Source of the DNA: Dehalococcoidales bacterium
GTDB lineage: Bacteria; Chloroflexota; Dehalococcoidia; Dehalococcoidales; UBA2162
NCBI GenBank assembly: GCA_034416335.1
Contig: DAOULV010000023.1
Location: forward strand, 768-64,767
Length of the DNA stretch: 64,000 nucleotides
Direction of reading: 5' to 3'
Part shown: positions 17,133 to 53,367 of the stretch, in pieces
Layout: each line of letters starts with the position of its first letter
How positions within the stretch are numbered: the first letter of the stretch is position 1
Notes under the pieces: model-generated
What the model saw: only the letters and a program-made list of their open reading frames with translations
Told to the model about the DNA's origin: nothing
Database searches by the model: none
Program-made: the position numbers and the translations under genes

Positions 17133-18329
17133 CTAATATTTCGTACTCATCAGAACATGATAATGATTCGTTTCCGACAGGCAGCAGACATTCCCGAAGA
17201 CATTTCCCATAAGCCGGTCGTATCGAAGGAACTTACCGGCCACCACAACCAGTCTTCCGTCAGGTTCCAGAATCTCCCGGGCGTGAACGACGAGGGGACC
17301 GGCAATATCGAATCTCTCAAAACCTGTATGAAAAGGCGGGTTGGTCAGGATAATATCATATCGTTTTCCGTTCAAACCGCTGAGGAGGTCGCTTACGATT
17401 ACCTCCGCACCGGTGACATCATTCAAGATGATGTTTTCCCCGACAGACGCTGTCGACGGCAGGTCGACATCCGCAAGGTCGACGTGCCCCGCGCCTTTCC
17501 TGGCAGCGAGGAGACCGATAATTCCATATCCGCAGCCTAAATCAAGAACACTCGAACCCGGAGAGACATCCATTACCTCCAGAAGAAGCCTGGTCCCTTC
17601 ATCGATTTCATCGTATGAAAAGACACCGGGCAGGCTTCGTAAGAGGAAAGTTTCCCCGCAAACTTCGGCTTGGAACTGGCGCCACGTTCCCGGTAAGATA
17701 CCCGGTTCATCCGCCCAGCCGGTATCGCGTGGTATTGGGTCTTCCTTAGCAGCCACGCTTACCCGTCCGCCTCTTTTATAGGCAAGTGTCACGGAGTTCC
17801 CGAACAGCGATTTCATATCCGAAACCGCCGATTTGATTCCTTCCCTATTAGCCCCTGCAAGGTATAAACGACCGCCGTTTTTTAAAGCCGAGAATGATTC
17901 TACCAGCCATCTCCTTGTGAATTCTCTCCCTCGCGGCAATACCATAACGACAATATCGAAAGAATCGGCATATACCGGCAGCACGGAGAGGTCCGGATGA
18001 ATACGCGCATTGGATACGCCGTTTAACCTCAGGGTCCTTTCCGCCATCGCAAGTGCCACGGAGTTCGTATCCACCAGAAGAACGTCGGCGCCGGGAGCGG
18101 CGCGCGCCAGTGTCACACCAAGTGCGCCGTGACCGCAGCCCAGCAGAAGAATCCGTGAACCGGCGGATACTTCAACCGTATCCGCCAGCAAAGCCACAGC
18201 CGGTGTAACGGTATTCCAATATGAAATACCCGGCTTGGAGATAAAACGGACGTTCTGGTTACGCAGGGTTACGGTAAATTCTCTGGTTTCATAGTATTCA
18301 AGATATGAAGGTGCTTTATTCGACATCAC
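17133..18329 (-). CDS. RsmC/RlmG-like rRNA (guanine-N2) methyltransferase with two MTase lobes
   Basis: ORF track 398 aa. Motifs are LLLGCGHGALG, VLDLGCGYGIIGL and ILTNPPFH. Confidence 0.7.
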   Translation of the reverse strand: MMSNKAPSYLEYYETREFTVTLRNQNVRFISKPGISYWNTVTPAVALLADTVEVSAGSRILLLGCGHGALGVTLARAAPGADVLLVDTNSVALAMAERTLRLNGVSNARIHPDLSVLPVYADSFDIVVMVLPRGREFTRRWLVESFSALKNGGRLYLAGANREGIKSAVSDMKSLFGNSVTLAYKRGGRVSVAAKEDPIPRDTGWADEPGILPGTWRQFQAEVCGETFLLRSLPGVFSYDEIDEGTRLLLEVMDVSPGSSVLDLGCGYGIIGLLAARKGAGHVDLADVDLPSTASVGENIILNDVTGAEVIVSDLLSGLNGKRYDIILTNPPFHTGFERFDIAGPLVVHAREILEPDGRLVVVAGKFLRYDRLMGNVFGNVCCLSETNHYHVLMSTKY

Positions 18330-18470
18330 AAGTTTCCGGTACGTGGTGTAATTTCAGGAGGCGTGTCCTGGCTGAGAGTATAAACACTCTATTATTATAG
18401 GGTATATCCGCGAGCCGTCAATCATCCTCCTCGCGCCTGAAAGCAGCATGACCGTGTCTGAATGAAGTAA

Positions 18471-18507
18471 AAATAAGAGAGGCGGCTTTTACGCTACCTC
18501 TCTTTTA
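18471..18507 (-). terminator. hairpin terminator downstream of the HesB-like gene
   Basis: AGAGAGG (18476-18482) pairs with CCTCTCT (18497-18503), flanked by A/T runs on both sides. Confidence 0.4.
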
Positions 18508-23970: not shown

Positions 23971-25788
23971 ATGCCGAACGGATATATGGGGAAATTGCTA
24001 TTCGTTAACCTTTCTACCGGTGAAATCGACGAAGAAACGCCGGATGAAAGTTTGTATCGCGACTTCATAGGCGGTTACGGAATCGGTGCCAGGGTATTGT
24101 ACAGCCGCCAGAAGGGCGGAGTCGACCCGCTCGGACCCGATAATACGCTGGGATTTATCACCGGTCCCCTCACCGGTACCCGGGCAACCTTTGCCGGAAG
24201 ATACTGCGTGGTAACCAAATCACCGTTAACCGGTGGCTGGGGAGACTCGAATTCCGGCGGGCATTTCGGTCCCAATATCAAATTCGCCGGCTATGATGCC
24301 GTTTTTATAAACGGAATTTCGGAAAAGCCTGTCTACCTGCTGCTGGATGACGGTAAAGTCGAGATAAAGGACGCCGGTCACCTGTGGGGAAAAGATACGT
24401 TCGCTGTCGAAGACACACTAAAGGAAGAGTATGGAAACGACCTGGAGAGTGTCAGCATCGGTCCTTCGGGCGAAAAGCTGTCGCTCATTTCCTGCATTAT
24501 CACCCGCAGAGGAGCCGCCGCGGGACGTTCCGGGGTAGGTGCGGTTATGGGATCGAAGAACCTCAAGGCAGTGGCGGCACGGGGAAAGATGGAGGTCCCG
24601 GTAAGGGACGCCGAACTGCTGAAAAAACTGAGAGACGAACACCTGGCGGCAATGCGGGGCGGTACCGGGACAAATGAGACAATCGAAGGATTTCACAAAT
24701 ACGGCACATCCAGTGTCGCCGCCTTCTTCGCCCATGGCGGTAATTCGCCCGTAAAAAACTGGGGAGGTATCGGTATCAACGAATTGCCCGATGTATCGGG
24801 GCTTACCGGTGACGCGGCAACTGCCAACATAGAAAGGCGAACCGGCTGCTGGGGATGTCCGGTCGCCTGTGAAGGCAGGCTGAAAGAGGGAGAAGGCGAA
24901 TACAGGTACCCCGCCGGAACACGCCGGGTTGAATACGAGACCCAGGCGGCTTTCGGCACGATGTGCCTGAATACCAATACCGAGTCTATTAATATGGCCA
25001 ACCACCTGTGCAACTACTACGGCATCGATACGATTTCCGCCGGCAGTACTATTGCCTTTGCCATGGAGTGCTACGAGAAAGGTATTATTACAAAAGCGGA
25101 CACCGGGGGTATAGAACTCACCTGGGGAAACCACCGGGCAATTATAGAAATGCTGGAGAAAATGGCAAAGAGAGAGGGATTCGGCGACATCCTTGCCGAC
25201 GGTGTTAAAACTGCCGCGGAGAAAATCGGCAAAGGCTCCGAAGAATTCGCCATACACGTCGGCGGACAGGAACCCGGTATGCACGACCCCAAAGTCCCCG
25301 CCGGCCCCGAAAGCACCTCCGGAGCACGTTACCAGATGGACGCTACCCCCGGAAGGCATACCCAGATGAATTTCGGTCCCGCCAGCTTCGGCCATCACCT
25401 GTCTAATGCCAGCGGTTTCTGTATTTTCAGCGACCTCGTAGGAGGAAACGCGGCAGGCTATATTACCGGCTTTATGCGTGCCATAACCGACTGGGACCGC
25501 ACCGAAGAAGAACTGTTAAAGTGCGGTGAGAGAATTGTAAATATGCGTCATGCCTTCAACCTGCGTGAAGGGATAAATCCCCTGCTGGACTATAAGTTAC
25601 CTCCCAGGATGACGGGCAACCCGCCGTTCAAGGACGGTCCGCTTGCCGGCGTAACGGTTGATATCGACGAACAGATAAAAGGGAACCTGAAAGAGCTTGA
25701 CTGGGACCTGAAAACGACCAGACCCAGCCGGGAAAAACTGCTCGAACTGGGCTTAAACGACGTAGCGAATGAACTGTGGCCGGAGTAG
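23971..25788 (+). CDS. aor: aldehyde:ferredoxin oxidoreductase (tungsten/molybdopterin AOR family)
   Basis: ORF track 605 aa. The N-terminus GKLLFVNLSTGEIDEE...YGIGARVLY is typical, and the length fits the AOR family. Confidence 0.85.
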   Translation: MPNGYMGKLLFVNLSTGEIDEETPDESLYRDFIGGYGIGARVLYSRQKGGVDPLGPDNTLGFITGPLTGTRATFAGRYCVVTKSPLTGGWGDSNSGGHFGPNIKFAGYDAVFINGISEKPVYLLLDDGKVEIKDAGHLWGKDTFAVEDTLKEEYGNDLESVSIGPSGEKLSLISCIITRRGAAAGRSGVGAVMGSKNLKAVAARGKMEVPVRDAELLKKLRDEHLAAMRGGTGTNETIEGFHKYGTSSVAAFFAHGGNSPVKNWGGIGINELPDVSGLTGDAATANIERRTGCWGCPVACEGRLKEGEGEYRYPAGTRRVEYETQAAFGTMCLNTNTESINMANHLCNYYGIDTISAGSTIAFAMECYEKGIITKADTGGIELTWGNHRAIIEMLEKMAKREGFGDILADGVKTAAEKIGKGSEEFAIHVGGQEPGMHDPKVPAGPESTSGARYQMDATPGRHTQMNFGPASFGHHLSNASGFCIFSDLVGGNAAGYITGFMRAITDWDRTEEELLKCGERIVNMRHAFNLREGINPLLDYKLPPRMTGNPPFKDGPLAGVTVDIDEQIKGNLKELDWDLKTTRPSREKLLELGLNDVANELWPE

Positions 25789-25991: not shown

Positions 25992-26521
25992 TAGTGAATC
26001 AGGGCATTTACCGGGACGTCGAGCTTACTCTGTCCGTTCAGCGGGTCTAACTGAACCAGGAATTGTGCTGCGGTAACCTCCCCGCCGAGTTCCCTGATAA
26101 GTTCTATCGATGCCTTGGCGGTACCTCCGGTAGCAAGAACATCGTCAACCAGGAGGACTTTCTGGCCCGATAATACTGCGTCGTGGTGAAGTTCGATTTC
26201 CACAAGACCGTATTCCAGTTCTGCCTGGGTCTTGAGTGTTTTACGCGGCAGCTTGCCTGCTTTCCTGATGGGCACGAAACCGGCGCCGAGTTCGACTGCA
26301 ATTGCCGGACCGAATAAAAATCCACGGGCTTCAAGGGCGACGACAACTTCGATGTCCTTATTCCGGTAGGGGAGTGTCATCATATCTATCGCATTTTTAA
26401 GCATTTCCGGATGCTGCAGCAGCGGAGTAATATCGCGGAAAATCACTCCCTTTTCAGGATAGTCCGGAATATCTGCAATGTATTTTTTCAGCTCTTCACT
26501 CTTACTGTATTCTTCCGACAT
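25988..26521 (-). CDS. apt: adenine phosphoribosyltransferase
   Basis: ORF track 177 aa. The PRPP motif is VLLVDDVLATGGTA. Confidence 0.85.
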   Translation of the reverse strand: MSEEYSKSEELKKYIADIPDYPEKGVIFRDITPLLQHPEMLKNAIDMMTLPYRNKDIEVVVALEARGFLFGPAIAVELGAGFVPIRKAGKLPRKTLKTQAELEYGLVEIELHHDAVLSGQKVLLVDDVLATGGTAKASIELIRELGGEVTAAQFLVQLDPLNGQSKLDVPVNALIHY

Positions 26522-26663
26522 TTCATTACCTCTATCCGTAGATTGATCATTCCTGGTACAGGATTTCAGGATATATCAAAGCTATTATATATCAGCCCCG
26601 TCAACCGTACAATCGAAACAACTGAATGCACTCCGGGTATTCCCTTCAATCACTTAAAAAGCT

Positions 26664-26970
26664 ACTATTCGGTTTTAGTTATGATTTTCGGTTCACCCCC
26701 CGCCTGCCAAAGTCTTGTACGGCGGGCAGGTCTTTATCCCCCTCAAACAGTAGCCTTATTCAGCAGAAATATTTCGATTGTTTGAGGGGGAAAGAGTTTG
26801 AGAGAGGGGCAAAGTCCCTGGCTATACGTCCCTCCTTCGTCATTGCGAGATTCCGCTTTCTCCCGTTCGTCCTTCGACAAGCTCAGGACGAACCCATCTC
26901 CTGCCTGCCCGCCGAAGCCTTGGCGCAGGCGGGTCATTGCGAGGAGTCCACCGAAGGCGAATGGCAATCT
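26664..26970. repeat. composite REP-like region (family-2 head plus GTCCTGAGCTTGTCGAAGGAC-type and GTCATTGCGAG-type hairpins)
   Basis: The head tactattcggttttagttatgattttcggttcaccccc recurs at 38389, 44220-44259 (reverse complement) and 58923. There is a 12-bp stem ccccctcaaaca/tgtttgaggggg. Confidence 0.55.
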
Positions 26971-27157
26971 CCAGTATCAGGTAATGCATAATTTATCGGA
27001 ATGACACACTTTTTGTTTCCTCTCCTTTGATGGGAGAGGATTAAGGTGAGGGTGATAAGTGGATTTATGCCACCCTCATCCTGACCTTCCCCCATCAAGG
27101 GGGAAGGGACTGGTTATAGGACTAGCTTCAGACAGTTTTTTTGTTACAGTATACCAG
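26971..27157 (+). mobile_element. MITE-like element, family 1, copy B
   Basis: Ends are ccagtatcaggtaat ... gttacagtataccag. The internal hairpins match the other copies. Confidence 0.6.
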
Positions 27158-28483: not shown

Positions 28484-29200
28484 TTGAATCCTTATTCATT
28501 TATAGTATCTATTCTGGTTTATATCGCCATATTCGTCCTTGTCGTCGGGCTTATCTACCGGATATATAAATGGATTAAGATTCCCAGAAGTAAATTAAGC
28601 CTGGGACTATACCCCAAGCCAAAAAGCGGAGCAGGAAGGCTGCTCAAGCTTGGAAAAGATACATTCCTGTTTCCCCAGGTATATGAGGTAGACCGCTGGA
28701 TGTGGATATTCGTGGTATGCCTTCACCTGACACTGGTATTCGCTTTCGTCGGCCACCTGAGGTTAATCCAGGAATTCACACCCCTGGTCAACGCCCTCGG
28801 TGATGAAGGCATGAACCAGTTTGCTTTGATTAGCGGAGGTATAGTAGGAATCGTTATGATGCTCTCCGCTTTTTACTTGCTGATGAGAAGATTCAAGTCT
28901 CCTTACAAGGATATCTCAACTCCGGAGGATTACATTCTACTCGTCCTGCTGCTTATCATAATACTGCTGGGTAACCACCTTCGGTTCTTCGGCAGCGTAC
29001 ACGTTGCCGACTACCGGGAATATGTGCAAAGTCTGCTGATGTTCAAACCGTCTTTTAACGCGGAACTGGCTGAATCGGGGACGAAGTGGGTACTCACCAC
29101 CCATATATTATTCGCTTCTATCCTTGCGATTTACTTCCCGTTCAGTAAACTGGTGCACTTCGTAGGTTCATTCGCGGTCAATCTCGTCAGGAGTGATTAA
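28484..29200 (+). CDS. NarI/DsrM/HdrE-like membrane cytochrome b subunit
   Basis: ORF track 238 aa with multiple TM helices containing conserved His. It is paired with an HdrD/DsrK-like protein. Confidence 0.55.
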   Translation: MNPYSFIVSILVYIAIFVLVVGLIYRIYKWIKIPRSKLSLGLYPKPKSGAGRLLKLGKDTFLFPQVYEVDRWMWIFVVCLHLTLVFAFVGHLRLIQEFTPLVNALGDEGMNQFALISGGIVGIVMMLSAFYLLMRRFKSPYKDISTPEDYILLVLLLIIILLGNHLRFFGSVHVADYREYVQSLLMFKPSFNAELAESGTKWVLTTHILFASILAIYFPFSKLVHFVGSFAVNLVRSD

Positions 29201-30495
29201 TGGTGGATATTGATACTGAAAATAAACTGGTAGGCATACTTGAAAAAGGTATAAACCGGCAGCTCCAATATTACCTGGATGTCTGTACCAGATGTTCCAT
29301 ATGCAAAGACGGCTGTCATCAGTACGTAGCTACGAAAGATATCAGGTATCTTCCGGCTTACCGTGCCGAACTGATACGCCGTATTTTCAAGAAATATCTA
29401 ACTGCCGAAGGTAAATTCATTCCCTCCCTCGGTGAAGCGACCGGGATAGACGACCGTCTTCTCGATGACCTGTTTATATCGACTTACGCCTGCACGGGAT
29501 GCCGGCGCTGTATGTATTACTGTCCGTTTTCGATAGACACCACCTGGGTGCTTTCCCTGGCGAAAGCCATACTCATCGCAGCCGGAAAAGCTTCGACGAT
29601 ATTGACGGAACTTGCCGACGCCTCCATTATGAAAGGGGAAAGTATAGACCTCTTTAAAGACATTATTATAGACACCCTGAAAGATACCGAAAAACAATTA
29701 CAGGAAATAGTAAAAGACCCGAATGCCGGAATTCCCATCGATAAAGAAGGGGCCGATATCCTTTATGCGGCGTTGTCCGGTGTACACAGTATATTACCAG
29801 CGGCGGTAATATTTCACCAGGCGAAAGCAGACTGGACTCTTTCGATGTTCGAAGCGGCAAATTACGGCTATTTCCTGGGCGATGCCGGGAAAGCCGTAAA
29901 AATCGCCGACCGTATAGTCGACGAAGCAAAAAGACTAAATGTCAAAGAGGTGGTGATAACCGAGTGCGGGCATGCTTACCGGGTAATGAAGATTCTGTAT
30001 GAATACTGGACAAAAGAGGAGCTTCCCTTCAAGGTTACCAGTATACTGGAAGTTATTTCACGGTACTTAAAAGAAGGGAAGATAAAGGTAGATACCGGGA
30101 AAATTAAGGAAATCATCACCTATCACGATCCCTGCCAGTTCGGAAGGAATGCAGGTTTCTTTGACCTGCCGAGAGAGATCATCGGTAATGTCACCAGCAA
30201 TTTCAGAGAACTTGAGCCTAACCGCGAAAAGAACTGGTGCTGCGGCGGTGGCGGCGGGCTTGTTGCCCAGCCCGACTTTGACGAACTCAGACTGGAAACG
30301 GGCAGAAAGAAAGCAGAACAGATACGGAGCAGTAAAGCGAAAACGGTCATCAGTCCCTGTGAAAACTGCCGGCTGCAGCTGGCTGACCTTAATAAAAAAT
30401 ATGAACTTGATATTACCACAAGTTCGATGATGGACTTTGTTGTTAATGCGATGATATTCGATTCACCGGAACCCGGGGAGGAAAAAGACGATTAA
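29200..30495 (+). CDS. HdrD/DsrK-like Fe-S protein with CCG domains
   Basis: ORF track 431 aa. Motifs are CTRCSICKDGC, CTGCRRCMYYCP and NWCCGGGGG...PCENC. Confidence 0.75.
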   Translation: MVDIDTENKLVGILEKGINRQLQYYLDVCTRCSICKDGCHQYVATKDIRYLPAYRAELIRRIFKKYLTAEGKFIPSLGEATGIDDRLLDDLFISTYACTGCRRCMYYCPFSIDTTWVLSLAKAILIAAGKASTILTELADASIMKGESIDLFKDIIIDTLKDTEKQLQEIVKDPNAGIPIDKEGADILYAALSGVHSILPAAVIFHQAKADWTLSMFEAANYGYFLGDAGKAVKIADRIVDEAKRLNVKEVVITECGHAYRVMKILYEYWTKEELPFKVTSILEVISRYLKEGKIKVDTGKIKEIITYHDPCQFGRNAGFFDLPREIIGNVTSNFRELEPNREKNWCCGGGGGLVAQPDFDELRLETGRKKAEQIRSSKAKTVISPCENCRLQLADLNKKYELDITTSSMMDFVVNAMIFDSPEPGEEKDD

Positions 30496-42739: not shown

Positions 42740-43993
42740 ATGGACGTAACACCCGAGCAAAGATACAGGGAAAAGGGGAAAAGACTGGGCGACGTCGTCC
42801 GGCTGCAGATACCGGACAGAGTGCCGGTGATGCTGGAATTAAGTTATTTCCCGGCCTGGTACACCGGACTGACTTTTGAAGCTGCATACTACGACTATGA
42901 CAGGTGGCTCGAAGCCTGTATCAAGACTACGCTCGACTTCGACCCTGATCTGGTGCACATTACTCCGTTTTTCCCCGGTGAAGCGCTGGAGCTTCTCGAA
43001 CCCAGGCCGCTCAAGTGGCCTGGACACGGAGTGTCGCCCGATGACTCGCACCAGTACCTCGAACTGGAGAGTATGAAAGAGGATGAATACGATGCTCTTA
43101 TGGGCGACATATCCGACTTTATACTGCGGAAGCACCTGCCGCGTGTCTGCGGGGCAATGGAGGCTTTCAGCAAACTCCCCAGGCTTTCTGCACAGGGTTT
43201 CAGCTACCGGGGGGCGCTTGCCCTGGCGGAAGCGCTGGCAGACCCCGAAGTTACCGATGCAATCGGGAAGCTCAGGGAAGTCGGTCGGATTATGCTGAAA
43301 TGGCGTTCAAGGATGGACTCGTTCGGGAAAGAAATCGATAAACTAGGTTACCCCAGATTCAGTCCGGGCACGGCACAGGCGCCCTTCGATTCTGTTTCAG
43401 ACTTCCTGAGAGGAATGCAGGGTACCATGCTAGATATATTCCGCCAGCCCGACAAACTGCTCCGGGCCTGCGATAAAATCCTTGAAGACAGGATAAACAG
43501 GGGTATTCCCGCAGTAGAAGGCAGCGATGAATGTCCTCACCTGCTGTTTATGGGTATGCACCGGGGCTCGGACGGCTTTATGTCCGTACGGCAGTTCGAA
43601 AAGTTCTACTGGCCTACGCTTAAGAAGATCATTCTTGCCGTTATAGACGCCGGACTGACGCCGCTTATCTTCTGTGAGGGCGACTGGACGACCAGGATAC
43701 ATTATTTACTGGAGTTGCCGGCAGGTAAAAGCGTCGCCCGTCTCGACCTGACCGATATATATAAAGCCAAGGAGATTCTTAAAGGCCATACGGCAATAAT
43801 GGGGAACGTCCCTGCTTCCATATTGCAAACCGGTACACCGGACGATGTGAAAAACCGCTGCAGGAAACTGATAGATGTGATAGGTAAAGACGGCGGATAT
43901 ATCCTGACAGCGGGGAGTTCCATAGACAAGGCAAGACCGGAAAACATCAGGGCAATGGTGGATTTCACGAAAGAGTACGGGGTATACGGGTAG
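42740..43993 (+). CDS. uroporphyrinogen-decarboxylase (URO-D)/MtaA-like family protein
   Basis: ORF track 417 aa. FCEGDWTTRIHYL and the C-terminal KDGGYILTAGSSIDKARPENIRAMVDFTKEYG match the URO-D/methyltransferase family pattern as I recall it. Confidence 0.6.
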   Translation: MDVTPEQRYREKGKRLGDVVRLQIPDRVPVMLELSYFPAWYTGLTFEAAYYDYDRWLEACIKTTLDFDPDLVHITPFFPGEALELLEPRPLKWPGHGVSPDDSHQYLELESMKEDEYDALMGDISDFILRKHLPRVCGAMEAFSKLPRLSAQGFSYRGALALAEALADPEVTDAIGKLREVGRIMLKWRSRMDSFGKEIDKLGYPRFSPGTAQAPFDSVSDFLRGMQGTMLDIFRQPDKLLRACDKILEDRINRGIPAVEGSDECPHLLFMGMHRGSDGFMSVRQFEKFYWPTLKKIILAVIDAGLTPLIFCEGDWTTRIHYLLELPAGKSVARLDLTDIYKAKEILKGHTAIMGNVPASILQTGTPDDVKNRCRKLIDVIGKDGGYILTAGSSIDKARPENIRAMVDFTKEYGVYG

Positions 43994-44328: not shown

Positions 44329-45582
44329 ATGGCAGAAAAATCACCGGAAGAACTGTACAGGGAAAGAGACCAGAGGCTTGCCGATGCAATAGAACTGAAA
44401 GTGCCGGACCGTGTGCCGATAGATATGTCATTCGGTTATTTCCCGGCAAGGTACACAAATCAGCCTTTTTCAATAGTCTATTACGAACCGCAGAAGTGGC
44501 TGGAGGCGGTCAAGAAGACGGTTGTGGACTTCCAGCCCGACTCTCTGTTCTATATACAGGGACTTCAACCCGGTAAAGCCCTCGAGAAACTCGACCCGAA
44601 GACACAGAGATGGCCGGGGCACGGCGTTCCCGAAAATACCGGTAATCAGGCAATTGAGGGCGAGTTTATGAAGGCGGACGAGTACGACCTGGTTATGAAA
44701 GACTCAACTAATTTCACACTTAGATACTTGATGCCGAGGACTGTCGGTTCAATGGAAGCCTGGGCGAATTTCCCGGACCTTTCCGATGCAGGCAGGGGGC
44801 AGATGGGTGCAATGATGATCGCGGAAGCATTAGCCAGGCCAGACATGGCTGCTTCCATAGCTACACTCCAGGAAGTCGGTCGCGAAATTGCCGAATGGAG
44901 AAAAACCTTACCTGACTTAAACGCCGCGGTGGAAGAACTCGGTTTCCCGGTAGGCGGGATGGGCGCCGGTGGGTCACCCTACGATCAGGTCATGAACGGT
45001 TTCAGAGGAATGCCGGGGACGATGATGGATATTTACCGCCAGCCGGACAAGCTTCATGAACTTATCGATTATTTCCTGGAAAGAAGTCTGAAACGAATCG
45101 AAGCGATGCCATACCGTGAACACCACAAGAGGAGTTTCATGGCTACGCACAGGGGTTCGGATGGATTCATGTCGAAAAAGCAATTCGAGGAATTCTACTG
45201 GCCAGGATTAAAGAAGATTTACCTTGCTGCCATCGATAAGGGAATCATCCCATGTATTTTCTTCGAGGGCGACTGGACAACCCGCCTCGAGTATCTTCTC
45301 GAGTTGCCGAAAGGCAAGATAATGGCGCACTTTGATTCCACGGATATTTTCCGAGCAAAAGACATCCTTAAAGGTCATATGTGCATCAGGGGTAATTTCC
45401 CCGGCTCACTGCTTACGGCCGGTACTCCCGACGAAGTGAAGGAACACGTCAAGAAGCTGATCGATTACGTAGGTAAGGACGGCGGTTACGTCATGTGCCC
45501 CAGGGTTGTTCCTGATTTTGCCAAACCGGAAAACCTGCACGCCATGATTGACTATACCAAGGAATACGGCGTCTACAACTAG
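44329..45582 (+). CDS. URO-D/MtaA-like family protein (paralogue)
   Basis: ORF track 417 aa. It is collinear with 42740..43993 (FFEGDWTTRLEYL, KDGGYVM...PENLHAMIDYTKEYG). Confidence 0.6.
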   Translation: MAEKSPEELYRERDQRLADAIELKVPDRVPIDMSFGYFPARYTNQPFSIVYYEPQKWLEAVKKTVVDFQPDSLFYIQGLQPGKALEKLDPKTQRWPGHGVPENTGNQAIEGEFMKADEYDLVMKDSTNFTLRYLMPRTVGSMEAWANFPDLSDAGRGQMGAMMIAEALARPDMAASIATLQEVGREIAEWRKTLPDLNAAVEELGFPVGGMGAGGSPYDQVMNGFRGMPGTMMDIYRQPDKLHELIDYFLERSLKRIEAMPYREHHKRSFMATHRGSDGFMSKKQFEEFYWPGLKKIYLAAIDKGIIPCIFFEGDWTTRLEYLLELPKGKIMAHFDSTDIFRAKDILKGHMCIRGNFPGSLLTAGTPDEVKEHVKKLIDYVGKDGGYVMCPRVVPDFAKPENLHAMIDYTKEYGVYN

Positions 45583-47548: not shown

Positions 47549-48892
47549 TTAAATATAGAAACGTTCTCTGAATACCTCTTCGAGCGTGTCAAGAAATATA
47601 TCACATTCCGCAATAGTATTATAAAAGTAAAAGGACGCTCTGTACATCATTCTCTGTTCACCCGGTAGCTGGGGACCCGACCATCCCTGACCGAATTCCT
47701 TATTCAGGAAAGAATGCACGCAAAACTGCCCGTCCCTGATCATTACATTACTTTTTTCACTTAATTCCTCGGCTATCCCGTTTGCATTTGGCCTTTTAAT
47801 TTCGAAAGAGAGTATTCCGCTTCTTTTCCCGGGATCTCTCGGCCCGAGTATGTGAAACCAGCCGAGGTCTCCGTAACGCTCCAGCAGCTTCTCCGACAGG
47901 TAGGTATTAAGGTTCTTTTCCTGTGCCCTGATATTTCCCATACCGACGTTCAGCAGGTACTTCACCGCCGCACCTGCTGCAATCTGGCCGGGATAATCCT
48001 GCAAACCCACTTCGAACCTTTCGGGTGGCATAAGAAGGTTGTATTCCTCGTAGGTGGTATCGATGATAGTATCTCCGCCGAGCATGGTGGGTAATACGAC
48101 GTCTTCGGTCTCATTTTCTTCCAGTGTTTCTTTACCCAGATATTCGGCTTTTCCGTAGAGAACGCCGACTCCCCTGGGACCACACATCTTGTGCAGGGAA
48201 AAAACCAGGAAATCCACGTCCAGTTCTTTAACATCGACAGCCTGGTGGGGGATGGTCTGAGCTCCGTCGAGCAGCACCCTGGCGCCGTACCGGTGGGCAA
48301 GACTGACAATCTCTTTCGCCGGTAAGGTATAGCCCGTAAGATTCGAGGTATATCCCATACTTACCAGTCTAACGCGGTTGTTTTTCAGCCTGTCTTCGAA
48401 CACATCGAGGTCTATCTCTCCGTCTTCAGTAGAGTCTATCGGTATCGTCTCGATAATTCCCTTTTTGCGTAAACGGAGCCAGGGTATCAGGTTCGAGTTG
48501 TGTTCTTTATCCGTATGAAGGACCACATCCCCCGGTTTGAACTGGGTACCGAGGGCAACGATATTTACGCCGTGACTGGAGTTCAGAGTAAAAATGATTT
48601 CTTTATGGGAATCGGCATTGATAAAATCCTTGATGATATGCCGTGAACCCTTCATTCCCCGGTCAGGGTTACCGTCGATGCGGTCGGTTACTTCTCTGGC
48701 AAACCAGTGCCTGCTCCTACCTTCTCCGCAAGCCGGAAAATCGTTGTAATATTCATTGAAAGCATCTATGACCTGTTTGGGGACAAGCGTGTTACAGGCA
48801 TTATCGAAATATATCGGCGGCGCACCGTTTTGAAGATTTTTTAAGGACGGGAAATCTTTCCTTACCCATTCGAGTGGATTCTCGCTGGTCAA
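47549..48892 (-). CDS. class V aminotransferase-fold cysteine desulfurase (SufS/CsdA-like)
   Basis: ORF track 447 aa. The PLP lysine motif is FSLHKMCGPRGVGVLYG. Confidence 0.8.
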   Translation of the reverse strand: MTSENPLEWVRKDFPSLKNLQNGAPPIYFDNACNTLVPKQVIDAFNEYYNDFPACGEGRSRHWFAREVTDRIDGNPDRGMKGSRHIIKDFINADSHKEIIFTLNSSHGVNIVALGTQFKPGDVVLHTDKEHNSNLIPWLRLRKKGIIETIPIDSTEDGEIDLDVFEDRLKNNRVRLVSMGYTSNLTGYTLPAKEIVSLAHRYGARVLLDGAQTIPHQAVDVKELDVDFLVFSLHKMCGPRGVGVLYGKAEYLGKETLEENETEDVVLPTMLGGDTIIDTTYEEYNLLMPPERFEVGLQDYPGQIAAGAAVKYLLNVGMGNIRAQEKNLNTYLSEKLLERYGDLGWFHILGPRDPGKRSGILSFEIKRPNANGIAEELSEKSNVMIRDGQFCVHSFLNKEFGQGWSGPQLPGEQRMMYRASFYFYNTIAECDIFLDTLEEVFRERFYI

Positions 48893-49099
48893 TTATGTCT
48901 CCTTCCTTCAAGTATTATACTTAAAGGATTTACAGACGTCCAATAATTAATATAATAATTATTATAATACTCAACTATCCGGAGTACCGGCAGAAGATTG
49001 TGCAGTATAATACAATTATTCGAACGATTTTCAGAGAATTGACAAACATTTCAGATATCCCTGACAATTATCCTTACTATAAAACACAGGAGTTGCAAA

Positions 49100-50860
49100 A
49101 TGGCAGAAAAGGACAGAATTTATAAGTGTCTCAACCCGGTGGGAATGCAGTTGCCCATCAAAACGTTCCCCCTTGCACCCCGTCTGGATACGCTGGATGG
49201 TAAAGAGATATATCTCAGCATCACCGGCGAACCCGATATTACTATCCCCCTGGAGAAAAAACTTAAGAGCGACTACCCGAACGTCGACTGGAAGATAAAG
49301 AAGACCTACGGCATAGTACCGGTCGAGATATCGGAAGAAGAGATGAAAACAGCCGACGGTCTGATACAGGCGATATGCTGGTGAAGCGGAGCTGTATGGA
49401 GGCAGTTGCCTTATCTGGCCAAACTGGAAAAAGCGGGTATTCCTACCGTAGTAGTAGACCTCGAAGACCAGGAACAGATGGTCAAACAGGAAGCCCTGGT
49501 AAGTGGTGTTCCTAAAATCCGCTACCTGCACGCTTCCCGTACGCTGCCCGGTCCCGAGGACGTGGACAACTGGATAGAGCCGATGTTACAGGAATTACTC
49601 CGCCCTTTGAACGACGAGGAAAAAGAAAGCGGGATGTATACCATTCCCCAGCAGAGAATAATATTCGAAGGCACCCTCGAGGAAGCCCAGGACTTCTACC
49701 AGCAGACCGAGTGGATTCCTCTCCCCGTTGAAGCTCCGATAGCCAAATACACCGACGGCTTCCCGATTGTAGTCCCCACCGAAGAAAAGGTGAAGTGGAT
49801 GCTTACCGGCACCAGCCACGAACCGGATGAAATAATTACCCACCAGGCCGACAGGCTGGCAACGCAGGGAGAAGCGACCAGCGAAGGCAGATTGGAGATA
49901 AGAAAAGGGGACGTAGTCAGGTTCCAGCCTCTGAAAAGGACGGCGACGGTCGAACAGGTAGCAGTAAATGCCGTGATGGCTGGATGTCGACCCGAACACC
50001 TTCCCATCGTACTGGCTATAGCTCAGTCGGGAACCCCTATCAGCACGACCAACTTTCCCAGCCAGGCGGTGTGTGTCTCCGGTCCCATCGTCAAAGAAAT
50101 AGGTATGAACACCGGCTGCGGTATGTTCGGACCGGGCAGCATCGCCAACTCACCCATCGGACGAGCCTACCAGCTGATGGCTATCAACCTCGGCGGAGCA
50201 GTACCCGGGGTCAACCGGATGGGCTGCCTGGGAAGTCCGCTCAACAACGGCGGCGTAGCCTATGCCGAGAATGCCGGCGGCCTGCCAACGGAATGGAAAG
50301 GACTCAACGAGGAGTACGGTTTCAGGAAAGATGAAAACATCGTGATGGTCCAGATGATTACCGGCGGTATACTCGGTTCCCAGTTCTCGCCGGGCGGCTA
50401 CCGGGCTCTTCAGAAGAGCGGTCACGGCGGAATCGCCAGGAAGTTCGACGTCAAGGGTACCCCGGGTCCGCACAACTGGCTCGACTACCTGGTACCGGAA
50501 CTTTACGCCGGGCGTGAAGGTGCCTGGGCGATAGTAATGGTCCCCGAAATGGCACAGCACCTGGTGGACCTCGGATTCAAGTCCAAGGACGATGTATACA
50601 AGTATCTCTGGGAGAAAGGATTCGAACCTCTGAAAAAATACAGGGGGCGGTCGTGGCCCGATTTCAGGAGAAACGGCTGGACGGGCATTGAGAAGACTTC
50701 CGGGAAACCCTGGAAGGAACTTCCCGACGACTACATGGTACCGGCTGCCGGTGACGACCCCAATCAGTTTTGCATTGTAATAGGTGGCGGACAGGAAGAA
50801 GCCTGTGTCCAGCTAGCCGGTGACCGCGGTAACGCCTTCAGCATTGATGCCTGGAAGTAG
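49100..50860 (+). CDS. about 586-aa selenoprotein candidate: GrdB/PrdB/UGSC-like N-terminal domain plus a large uncharacterised C-terminal domain (UGA 49382-49384 = Sec)
   Basis: ORFs 49100..49384 and 49406..50860 are in one frame, and the only interruption is the TGA. The paralogue has a TGA at the same aligned site (AICW-U-SGAVWRQLPY vs GVCW-U-HNAVRRQLPY). The bridge codons differ synonymously (gct/gcc Ala, gta/gtc Val). Hairpin GAGGC-AGUU-GCCUU lies at 49399-49412. Confidence 0.7.
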
Positions 50861-50967
50861 CCCTCACGCCAACGATAGAATAACCGGTATCCCACTTTTG
50901 TAAAGCGGGATTAAGGGGGATTTCTAAATCCCTCTCAATCTCTCCCGTATCAAGCACGGACAGGACT

Positions 50968-51177
50968 ATGGATGAACTTAAACTGCTCGAACTTATCAAC
51001 AAAGCTTACCGTGAACTGGAGCGGAGTCGTGAAGCGAACGCCAGCAGTTCGCTGATTAGAGTACTCGAAGAGGAAATCAAGGAGCTTGAGAATATTTTCG
51101 CTACCGGTGACGCGGAACGCCTCGAAAAGAGGGCTTTCCTCGACCAGTGCGCCGAAAAATTCGACAAACAATACTAG
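50968..51177 (+). CDS. small helical protein (paralogue of 53526..53714)
   Basis: ORF track 69 aa. It aligns with the 62-aa ORF (LL..I......E......A.S.....LE.E...L......E......AF.D.C). Confidence 0.5.
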   Translation: MDELKLLELINKAYRELERSREANASSSLIRVLEEEIKELENIFATGDAERLEKRAFLDQCAEKFDKQY

Positions 51178-51336
51178 TATCCTGTCTTACAAGTTCGCTG
51201 AATACGTTATTGGTTCTGCCGGACTCGTTCATGGTTCGATAAACTCACCATGAACGGAATAGAATAGCATAGTACCGCTCGTCCTGAGCTTGTCGAAGGA
51301 CGAGCAGATTATTCAAGGTATTTCCGAGACGCGATA

Positions 51337-51499
51337 CTGGTACGTTGTAACACAAAAATAGTCTGAAGCTGGTTCTATAACCAGTCCCTTCCCCCTTGAT
51401 GGGGGAAGGTTAGGATGAGGGTGATTTTAATCCTCTTCCTCAAGGAAGAGTAAACAATAAGCATGTTATTCCGAAAAACTAAGCGTTACCTGGTACCAG
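51337..51499 (-). mobile_element. MITE-like element, family 1, copy D (inverted)
   Basis: The ends are ctggtacgttgtaac and gttacctggtaccag, which match at 12 of 15 positions as inverted repeats. The internal hairpins match the other copies. Confidence 0.65.
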
Positions 51500-51612
51500 A
51501 CAAAAAAATGACCGACACAGGCTGAAATTCCACCTGATAGCGGATATATCGCTAACTTGAAAATACCAACCGCTTTGTTTAATATATTCCTATCAAAAAA
51601 AGGAGAGTTCAT

Positions 51613-53367
51613 ATGGCAGGAAAAATCTATAAATGCCTGAATCCGACAGGTGTCCAGATGCCAGCTCAGCAATTCCCACTTGCCGAGCGCATCGATACTA
51701 TTAACGGAAAAACTATTCACCTGAATATCTGCGGCGAGCCTGATATAACCATACGCCTTGAACGGAAACTCGTTGCGGAATATCCCCAGGTAAACTGGCT
51801 GATCAAGAAGACAAACGGCATCGATCCGGTCAGGATGAGTGAAGAAGAAATGAAGACGGTGGACGCCGCTATCCTCGGGGTATGCTGGTGACATAACGCC
51901 GTCAGAAGGCAGTTGCCTTATCTGATCCAGCTTGAAAAAGCCGGTATCCCCACCGTGTTAATCGATTTCTTCGACCAGGATGGATTCGTCGAGAGTGAAG
52001 CCCAGGTACTCGGCGTCCCCAAACTTCGCTACATGCATGCCCACCGAATCATGCGCGGGACAGAGGACGTAGAGAGATTCATCGACGAGATGTTCGACGG
52101 AATTACCCGCCCCCTGACTGATGAAGAGAGACAGGAAGGAATGTGGAGGCCTGAAGGAACAAGAATACTGTTCGAGGGAACCCTTGAAGATGCTGAAGAG
52201 TTCTATATGCAGGCAGAAAAAAACGAATGGCAGCTTGGCGCCCCCTATGCCAGATACACCGACGGTTTACCGATCGTGGTACCCACCGAAGAACGGGTGG
52301 AAGCAATGCTTAAAGGCACCAGCCACGCTCCAAATGAAATAATCAACCTCCAGGCAGACCTGCCGGTAAGAGCTGCTCCTGAAGCCATAGGTAACGACCC
52401 GATAATACGAAAAGGCGAACCGGTACGTTACATGCCTACAAGAAGGGTAGCTACAGTCGAACAGGTTGCAGTAAACGCGGTAATGGCCGGCTGCAGGCCC
52501 GAATACTTTCCCGTGGTACTTGCCATAGCCGAAGCTTCCGCCGGGACCGGTGACGGTCGCAACGGACAGGGCTTTATCGTCAGCGGACCTATCGCCGAGG
52601 AAATCGGAATGAATTATGGTTTCGGACTCCTCGGTCCCGGTAACCCGGCCAACATAACCATCGGTCGCTCCTCCAAACTGATGTGGCGTAACCTGGGCGG
52701 TGCTTTACCGGGTATTACCGTAACCAGCAACTGGGGAGATAACCCTGCGGTTAATACCGGCTTCTGCATTGCTGAGTACGCCGGCGGACTTCCAAAGGAA
52801 TGGAAAGGTCTCAACGAAGAACTCGGATACAAGAAGGAAGAGAGTGTAATCATGGTCACCCATCCGGGTTCATTCGGTATAGGACAGCACTTTATGCCCG
52901 GTGTCTACCGAGCCCTCCAGAAGGACGGGCACGGCGCGATGGCGAGGTATCTGGGTGTCAAGGGTGTTCCCGGCCCTCATAACTGGCTTGATTACCTGTG
53001 TGTAGGGCTGTGGGCGGACCGCGAAGGCGGCATTACTCTGTTGATGATACCAGAAATGGCACAGCACCTGGTGGATATCGGATTCAAGTCCAAGGAGTCT
53101 GTTGCCGAATACATCTGGAAGAAGAGCTTCGAGCCGGTCAAAGAATACCGGATGCGCGGCGCACCCGATTTCGCTACCAACGGCTGGAGATCTATCGAAC
53201 CTACCTCGGGTAAACCCTGGCTGGAACTGGATGACGACTATATGGTACCGGCCGGTGGTTTTTCTCCAAAAGCAAACCAGATTCTTGTCTGCGGCGGTGA
53301 CGAAGAGACCTGCCATCGCTTCGGCGGCGGACAGGGTCAGCCGTACCTCATCGACAACTGGCGGTAA
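51613..53367 (+). CDS. about 584-aa selenoprotein candidate, paralogue of 49100..50860 (UGA 51889-51891 = Sec)
   Basis: ORFs 51613..51891 and 51913..53367 are in one frame, separated only by the TGA. Hairpin CAG-AAGGC-AGUU-GCCUU-au-CUG at 51903-51924 starts 11 nt after the UGA. Confidence 0.7.

Follow-up and report, generated by a model that had tools for sequence, protein, structure and literature searches.

The DNA considered here is a 64,000-nt stretch of the genome of a Dehalococcoidales bacterium (contig DAOULV010000023.1), referred to throughout as the window, and all positions are counted from its first letter. Between 49100 and 53367, on the forward strand, it contains four open reading frames (ORFs) that very probably represent just two genes, each encoding a single protein in which an in-frame UGA codon is decoded as selenocysteine (Sec). 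Judged by comparison of their sequences, the two predicted proteins belong to the uncharacterised UGSC family of selenoproteins, as divergent members that have yet to be annotated.

The first locus (copy 1) consists of one frame running from 49100 to 50860 and broken by a single TGA at 49382-49384, which divides it into an ORF of 94 codons (49100-49384) and one of 484 codons (49406-50860). Copy 2 is laid out in the same way, its frame extending from 51613 to 53367 with a single TGA at 51889-51891 between ORFs of 92 codons (51613-51891) and 484 codons (51913-53367). In copy 1 the TGA is followed by seven sense codons (S G A V W R Q) before the TTG with which the second ORF opens; the peptide around the stop is AICW-(stop)-SGAVWRQLPYLAKLEKAGIPTV in copy 1 and GVCW-(stop)-HNAVRRQLPYLIQLEKAGIPTV in copy 2. 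Reading through the TGA gives products of 586 residues (copy 1, with Sec95 in the motif C-W-U-S-G-A) and 584 residues (copy 2, with Sec93 in the motif C-W-U-H-N-A), which are about 56% identical to one another. This arrangement had been proposed in an initial annotation made from the letters of the window, and on re-reading the sequence its coordinates, its frames and its count of seven sense codons after the TGA were all borne out, as were the synonymous differences (gct/gcc and gta/gtc) that it had pointed to in the bridge.

Conservation of the in-frame TGA

In order to see what occupies the position of the TGA elsewhere, one genome per species was scanned, yielding 78 loci from 20 metagenome-assembled genomes (MAGs) of Dehalococcoidales/Chloroflexota; the column was read using tblastn with the read-through protein, followed by an in-frame walk upstream from each C-terminal match. 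In homologous loci the tblastn alignment extends over residues 1-586 and runs straight across the stop. A TGA is present at the same aligned column in 95 of the 96 informative copies, drawn from all 20 MAGs, the single exception being a degraded fragment, and neither TAA nor TAG is ever found there, even though these two codons between them terminate 35 of the 39 long ORFs in the window (TAG 18, TAA 17, TGA 4, at a G+C content of 46.6%). Conservation of the TGA at this column is thus far beyond chance. The surrounding residues follow the pattern [C/A/V/S/T/L/I]-W-TGA-[S/H/P/T]-[G/N]-A, in which the Trp is invariant, so that the initial claim of a shared column following a Trp extends well beyond the two copies on which it was based. 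A conserved stretch of 91-94 codons lies upstream of the TGA in these copies, and no further disruptions of the frame occur in them.

The codons of the bridge are informative in their own right. Its Gly is encoded by GGC in 35 copies, GGT in 22, GGG in 14 and GGA in 5, and its Ala by GCC in 40, GCT in 30, GCG in 10 and GCA in 8; retention of the amino acids while the third positions drift is the signature of a translated sequence. A genome-wide reassignment of TGA is not indicated, because TGA ends three or four ordinary genes in the window. Other in-frame TGA codons in the window, within 17133-18488 (reverse strand) and 26318-27004 (forward strand), were considered and rejected as selenoproteins.

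In public collections the same split recurs on a large scale. A search of protein clusters (90% identity) with the full-length query matched at least 1,835 of them, the best 120 all being pieces of about 480 residues that cover 83% of the query, while a profile of the first 165 residues matched at least 2,328 clusters, the best 120 of which are nearly all 94-residue pieces covering 57%. In GenBank the two pieces appear as adjacent hypothetical proteins (e.g. ACFLUP_02760, labelled P0094 here, and ACFLUP_02765, labelled P0238). No close full-length form with Cys in place of Sec is found among the best 120 matches of the N-terminal profile; as such a form would outscore fragments, its failure to appear implies that there is none within the close branch.

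The hairpin downstream of the UGA

Immediately 3' of the UGA there is a small hairpin in each copy, which we take as a candidate selenocysteine insertion sequence (SECIS). In copy 1 it spans 49399-49412, with 49399-49403 paired to 49408-49412 through four Watson-Crick pairs and a closing G.U, and its loop, AGUU (49404-49407), lies at nt 23-26 counted from the U of the UGA; an optional lower stem could be formed by 49391-49394 with 49416-49419. The copy 2 hairpin spans 51906-51919, again with the loop AGUU (51911-51914). Both hairpins, with this loop, had been reported in the initial annotation, with an extension to 51903-51924 for copy 2; in the predicted fold the copy 2 hairpin can be extended to 51901-51926.

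The strongest indication that this element is maintained as RNA comes from an alignment of 93 distinct copies, in which stem columns 24-28 pair with columns 33-37 and 93.5% of the stem cells are paired. When this named stem structure (rather than an RNAalifold consensus) was scored for covariation, as the initial annotation had proposed should be done, the score was 0.249, as against 0.143 in shuffled alignments; none of 500 shuffles reached 0.249, and the score falls when the partner columns are slid out of register. At the outer Watson-Crick pair 46 copies have A-U and 42 have G-C, and among the stem triplets AGG..CCU occurs 46 times and GGG..CCC 30 times, while a G.U combination is seen once. 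Two paralogues alter RNA and protein together with the pairing kept, namely GGA CAG UUG UCC (G-Q-L-S) and GAA CAG UUG UUC (E-Q-L-F). Within the loop, the Gln codon is CAG in 93 of 93 copies and the Leu codon is UUG in 91 of 91, whereas in the rest of these genes TTG accounts for 9.5% of Leu codons, and another conserved Leu, six codons further on, is written CUU, CUG or CUC. The hairpin is built from the (R/G)-Q-L-P codons, so that the constraints on protein and RNA overlap.

A second line of evidence is the position of the loop. All ten regions downstream of a UGA that were folded (the two in the window and eight from distant subfamilies) form a hairpin with its apical loop at nt 21-26 from the U of the UGA, the loops being AGUU, AGUU, UUC, AGUC, CGUGA, GGU, GGUC, CAGGU, AGUUG and GGUC, nearly all of which contain G-U; the local protein sequences of the eight distant subfamilies are unrelated, yet the hairpin is similarly placed. 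As a control, the same script places the loop GGUC of Escherichia coli fdhF at nt 22-25. Like the fdhF SECIS (which follows UGA140), the present hairpins lie directly 3' of the UGA within coding sequence and carry an apical G-U, at nt 23-26 in the window and at nt 21-24 in the distant forms L086 and L089, where the loop is again GGUC. Unlike it, those in the window have a much shorter stem (4-5 pairs), no conserved bulged U and no Rfam model, and the role of SelB is a predicted one. In this connection it may be noted that 12.6% of the selenoprotein entries in BSepDB lack a canonical SECIS. In these comparisons, which are of sequences and predicted folds, the hairpin behaves like a SECIS.

Distant relatives

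An exhaustive HMMER search using a profile of the C-terminal part returned 3,954 cluster representatives, which were aligned to the family model. Among the aligned representatives 21 are full-length proteins in which the column is read through; six of these have Cys at the Sec column (P0349, with the motif C-G-S-C, together with P0274, P0285, P0335, P0341 and P0350), and about 15 have Ser, Thr, Gly, Met or some other residue there. A further 55 or so representatives, of 430-475 residues, begin 7-27 residues past the column, which is the appearance expected of split Sec forms. For eight distant relatives the DNA was available, and in each of them a TGA stands in frame at the column, the motifs being H-U-S-T-C (L079 and L086), W-U-G-G-A (L081), L-U-G-S-C (L084), Y-U-G-N-G (L085), W-U-S-G-A (L087), C-U-G-A-M (L088) and H-U-G-N-C (L089). 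The comparison of fused and split homologues suggested by the initial annotation thus has a clear outcome: full-length read-through relatives exist, including forms with Cys aligned to the UGA, and where homologues are split it is always at the TGA. TGA in distant relatives combined with Cys at the same column is the standard pattern by which a selenoprotein family is recognised, and on this basis the present family is predicted to be one.

Some of these relatives have features of their own. The distant Sec form encoded at 83-2077 of L079 has a twin-arginine-type signal (SRRDFLV), a lipobox-like LNAC and a Thr-rich linker, and is probably an exported lipoprotein selenoprotein; signal peptides are also seen in the non-Sec relatives P0274, P0295, P0313 and P0321. 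At about position 9148 of L042 there is a distant paralogue (about 30% identity) with the classic UxxC motif, here G-G-U-D-G-C, in a MAG that also contains copies of the C-W-U type, which means that both types of centre coexist in one genome.

Probable membership of the UGSC family

The UGSC family was first reported from marine metagenomes. Its Pfam model, PF24696, matches the window proteins over residues 11-144 (49130-49531 in copy 1) with 28.9 bits for copy 2 and 23.9 bits for copy 1, the gathering score being 25, and it matches 48 of the 77 representatives of the superfamily; since the match covers residues on both sides of the UGA, a single domain spans it. The corresponding NCBIfam model, NF041046 (“UGSC family (seleno)protein”), gives only 17.9 and 27.5 bits, below its cut-off of 125; proteins to which NCBI itself gives the UGSC name score 76-86 bits against the same model. 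One of these is the 550-residue Ottowia protein P0395, named “UGSC family (seleno)protein” by NCBI, which scores 76.5 bits. It seems that NF041046 has been adjusted to UGSC proteins that are short and stand alone, so that the branch with two domains and greater length escapes it. P0395 aligns over the whole post-UGA length of the window protein (27% identity, E 2e-41), from which it follows that the two-domain architecture is that of known long UGSC-family proteins. The full-length Cys form P0349 has 548 residues, and for its relatives in cultured Betaproteobacteria, such as Ottowia thiooxydans and Variovorax, NCBI and UniRef use the names “UGSC family (seleno)protein” and “UGSC-like domain-containing protein”.

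The resemblance to the family is one of domain structure and of the position of Sec, which stands in the column of the family's U (by alignment to P0349, C-G-S-C, and L084, U-G-S-C), and the same C-terminal domain of about 400 residues is present in the 550-residue members named by NCBI. The predominance of Sec over Cys forms is also shared, the Global Ocean Sampling survey having recorded 255 Sec and 21 Cys forms of UGSC (PMC2398784). That survey noted in addition a “UGSC/Unknown_1 fusion” (Zhang & Gladyshev 2008, PMC2398784), which resembles the window proteins in that a UGSC-type Sec domain is joined to a conserved domain with no assigned function; Unknown_1 may correspond to the C-terminal domain described here. 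There are also clear differences. The U-G-S-C motif as such is not found, the window proteins having U-S-G-A and U-H-N-A; the defining Cys at +3 is present in none of 94 copies, and the motif of the branch is C-W-U-(S/H)-(G/N)-A. Cys forms are not seen among the matches listed for the branch, there are at least 12 paralogues in a single Dehalococcoidales MAG, and nowhere among the public matches listed is the branch annotated as a selenoprotein.

As to the fold of the N-terminal domain, a full-length model of the Cys-form homologue P0349 (mean predicted local distance difference test score, pLDDT, 94.9) has an N-terminal domain resembling flavodoxins and the flavodoxin domains of flavodiiron proteins, with template modelling (TM) scores of 0.5-0.58 (target-normalised) and E about 1e-3. 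By these tests the Sec domain would be flavodoxin-like rather than thioredoxin-like as guessed in PMC2398784, the fold being read from the homologue P0349 and transferred to the window proteins. The initial annotation had drawn a comparison both with GrdB/PrdB (selenoenzymes with which anaerobes process small nitrogenous solutes, and in which Sec stands a little ahead of a conserved beta-strand) and with UGSC-type proteins. The second comparison is supported by PF24696 and the end-to-end alignments, but the first found no support: neither window protein matches PF07355 (GrdB/PrdB) at E<=1, both lack a UxxCxxC motif, and no genes for the partners GrdA, GrdE or PrdA occur in the neighbourhoods of the family loci.

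The C-terminal domain and a proposed redox centre

Beyond the Sec domain, a linker and a C-terminal domain of about 400 residues occupy 49601-50857 in copy 1. The initial annotation had been unable to assign this domain, and the same is true here: no Pfam or NCBIfam family matches it, PDB sequence searches gave nothing significant, and a model of the 491 post-UGA residues of copy 1 (pLDDT 88.7, predicted TM score 0.90) has no Foldseek match in the PDB at E<=0.001. The best Foldseek match, class I fumarate hydratase (E 0.02, TM 0.17), was set aside as not meaningful. A marginal PDB sequence match (E 0.5) aligns a cysteine of the benzoyl-CoA reductase subunit MbdN with the Sec column.

Just two Cys-type residues never vary among the 94 full-length Dehalococcoidales copies, namely Sec95 and Cys296, the latter in the motif AVMAGCxPE (codon TGT at 49985-49987; its counterpart in copy 2 is Cys294, codon TGC at 52492-52494). 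The Cys of C-W-U (Cys93) occurs in 68% of copies. Across the wider family the occupancy of position 296 tends to be complementary to that of the +3 position: of seven forms with Ala at 296, five have UxxC or CxxC (L079, L084, L086, L089 and P0350, but not L085 and P0335), and of eight entries with Cys296, six lack the +3 Cys (the window branch, L081, L087, L088, P0274 and P0285, but not P0349 and P0341). The simplest interpretation of this complementarity is that the resolving cysteine is supplied either locally, as in UxxC, or from the C-terminal domain, and in the latter case the active site would lie at the domain interface.

On this basis the following scheme may be proposed. Each locus would encode, in a single gene, a cytoplasmic selenoprotein some 585 residues long. 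Ribosomes would insert selenocysteine at the in-frame UGA, while an mRNA hairpin 14 nt downstream presents an apical G-U loop 23-26 nt from the U of the UGA, the geometry by which SelB recognises SECIS elements in bacteria. The N-terminal 165 or so residues are modelled as a flavodoxin-like alpha/beta domain with Sec at a strand-to-helix junction, at the N-terminus of the helix, fused to the domain of about 400 residues that carries the invariant Cys296. Having presumably lost the UxxC cysteine of the family, the window branch may employ Sec, placed where the two domains meet, as a redox-active nucleophile that cycles through a selenenylsulfide with Cys296 or, where present, with Cys93. The substrate could be a small organic solute brought in by the ATP-binding cassette (ABC) transporters that often adjoin these genes. 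Chemistry between Sec and Cys296 is the tentative part of the scheme, a possibility to which we would give somewhat less than even weight.

Alternative explanations

A number of observations weigh against the conclusions reached so far. The copies compared are related to one another, and counts of codons and pairs overstate the number of independent events, although the direction in which the covariation and the frozen codons point stays clear despite this kinship. The stem has just 4-5 pairs, with modest folding z-scores for individual sequences (-0.5 to -3.2); an Rfam scan of the window gave no match to the hairpin, and RNAalifold, run on the 93 sequences, recovers only the inner two pairs of the short stem. 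Neither the window nor some 800 kb of related loci yielded selA, selB or selD (sought by tblastn with the E. coli proteins), and no tRNA-Sec was found in the window or in 60 related loci. As regards the chemistry, of 54 full-length relatives whose N-terminal domain contains neither Sec nor Cys, 37 retain Cys296, which implies that this residue has an independent function and is not necessarily a partner of Sec; no reductase gene is a conserved neighbour in the Dehalococcoidales loci, and no biochemical function has been reported for any UGSC protein in the literature found.

How far do these points favour other explanations? One could suppose that each locus comprises two genes, one for a protein of 92-94 residues ending at a genuine TGA stop and another for a protein of 484 residues that restarts at the TTG, possibly by coupling through a GGAGG. 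Every public annotation does call the pieces separately (as in ACFLUP_02760/ACFLUP_02765), and a GGAGG is indeed present at 49398-49402, 3 nt 5' of the TTG of copy 1, as the initial annotation had cautioned. However, these letters belong to the Trp-Arg codons and to the 5' arm of the hairpin and are not kept in other copies, which have GGGGG, GGGAG or AGAAGG, while the TTG is held fixed by the hairpin; two genes would also leave unaccounted for a stop that is always TGA although this is the rarest stop in the window, a bridge conserved as protein with synonymous drift, a single Pfam domain across the junction, and fused relatives with Cys, Ser or Thr at the column, all of which makes this explanation extremely unlikely. 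Decay of the genes, or errors of sequencing or assembly that create in-frame stops, might be suspected from two related fragments that do look degraded (L050 at about 9837, with TAA, and L070 at about 4258), but such an origin is effectively refuted by the agreement of 95 copies, from 20 assemblies made independently, in both the codon and its column, by the thousands of metagenome proteins that are divided there too, and by the lack of other frame disruptions. The failure to find Sec machinery in the sequence covered and the unusually small size of the hairpin for a bacterial SECIS could instead be taken to mean that the hairpin stimulates near-cognate or suppressor decoding, by which Cys, Trp or Gly would be inserted at the UGA. 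This we consider very unlikely, given that relatives have Cys at the column and some of them the classic UGSC or USTC, that the position and G-U of the loop match those of the experimentally defined fdhF SECIS, that the family is already curated as a (seleno)protein in NF041046, and that the class uses Sec: among its cultured members, Dehalogenimonas alkenigignens possesses selC and selB as well as genes for Sec synthesis (PMC4918011), and two Dehalococcoidia are among the ten bacteria richest in selenoprotein genes in BSepDB (PMC13326102).

A different kind of alternative accepts the selenoproteins as such but makes Sec a ligand to a metal or cofactor, or a lone covalent nucleophile, with Cys296 as an independent catalytic residue. 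The persistence of Cys296 in relatives devoid of Sec and Cys in the N-terminal domain, the limited occurrence of Cys93, the Tat-type (twin-arginine translocation) signal of one distant Sec form (typical of exported enzymes containing cofactors) and the genes for a flavin adenine dinucleotide (FAD)-binding protein and a 4Fe-4S ferredoxin that precede the Sec form P0271 (L088, 1-359) can all be accommodated in this way. Against it stand the complementarity of UxxC and Cys296, most simply understood as a choice between resolving cysteines, the lack of any conserved metal-binding motif around Sec, and a thioredoxin-reductase-like gene (L080, 4173-5084) located 13 nt after the Cys form P0349 (C-G-S-C), which fits a thiol/selenol redox cycle; we regard this alternative as a rather unlikely one, though one to be taken seriously. 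Recoding of the UGA by means of the hairpin and divergent membership of the UGSC family, with the proposed chemistry as the tentative part, provide with high probability the best explanation of the two loci.

Gene neighbourhoods and other features of the window

The neighbours of the family genes vary. Tandem paralogues occur in 16 cases and a family-5 solute-binding protein (SBP_bac_5) lies directly upstream in 11; other neighbours include CoA-transferases, URO-D/MtaA-like proteins, dehydrogenases and a SufS-like desulfurase, and no operon partner is conserved across the Dehalococcoidales loci. Such neighbourhoods suggest that the proteins are stand-alone catabolic enzymes for imported small solutes.

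In the window itself, Shine-Dalgarno-like and promoter-like sites, which are consensus matches only, precede the short ORF in both copies, with none between TGA and TTG. In copy 1 they comprise AGGAG at 49088-49092, 7 nt before the ATG, and TTGACA-18-GACAAT at 49039-49068, and in copy 2 AAGGAG at 51600-51605 and TTGAAA-17-TAATAT at 51557-51585. The 750-bp spacer between the copies (50861-51612) contains an ORF of 69 residues (50968-51177) with no Pfam match and short G/C-rich stretches resembling inverted repeats, for instance at about 50908-50950 and 51380-51450. Antisense ORFs on the reverse strand, of 166 codons (49031-49531) and 142 codons (51466-51894), overlie the N-terminal pieces, and similar ones are present in 20 loci; they look like by-products of the conserved sense frame rather than genes.

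Divergent from copy 1 there is a SufS-like class V aminotransferase (47549-48892, reverse strand), which recurs in seven loci and scores 307 bits against TIGR01979 (below cut-off) and 122 bits against the selenocysteine lyase SclA; it could be an enzyme of selenium or sulfur delivery, or its presence could be coincidence. Further upstream, two tandem paralogues of 417 residues (42740-43993 and 44329-45582, forward strand) have a C-terminal methyltransferase domain of the URO-D/MtaA-CmuA-like type, a family (cluster 4) found near the selenoprotein genes in 13 of 78 related loci. A DsrK/HdrD-like iron-sulfur protein (28484-30495, forward strand), which scores 278 bits against NF045796 and so falls short of the cut-off, and an aldehyde:ferredoxin-oxidoreductase-like ORF (23971-25788, forward strand), for which the match is confined to the first 230 or so residues, point to anaerobic redox metabolism.

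Implications

The proteins described here are not of a new kind, because the UGSC family is known and long two-domain members of it already have an NCBI name. In a review whose table covers 119 families, the only entry for UGSC is “UGSC-containing protein, UGSC motif”. Judged from the literature and sequence collections searched, what appears to be new is a branch with a C-W-U-x-x-A centre that lacks the UxxC cysteine and has no Cys forms within it, a compact SECIS whose AGUU loop is embedded in codons for R/G-Q-L-P, the presence of at least 12 copies in a single MAG, and the existence of thousands of split “hypothetical proteins” in public data.

The most immediate consequence is for annotation. 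With at least 1,835 clusters of the C-terminal piece and at least 2,328 of the N-terminal piece, the best matches all being paired hypothetical proteins, the single-selenoprotein reading would correct the annotation of bacteria that are abundant in sediment and groundwater. For the study of bacterial SECIS elements, a well-supported and very small example set within conserved codons would be useful in widening the existing models. The complementarity of UxxC and Cys296 suggests, in a testable form, how the redox centre of an uncharacterised selenoprotein family may be built, while the C-terminal domain of about 400 residues, having neither a Pfam family nor a Foldseek neighbour in the PDB, is an obvious structural target.

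A much larger picture can be sketched, although as a whole it has to be treated as speculative and on balance improbable: that this is a large, obligately selenium-dependent catabolic family with a catalytic fold not seen before, represented in each Dehalococcoidales genome by a dozen or more substrate-specific paralogues, each with its own ABC importer, which would make up much of the selenoproteome of the Dehalococcoidia and in which an inter-domain couple of Sec and Cys296 would have replaced an ancestral UxxC. On the single-selenoprotein reading, in any event, selenoprotein counts would rise by up to a dozen per genome, which may help to account for the place of Dehalococcoidia among the most selenoprotein-rich bacteria.

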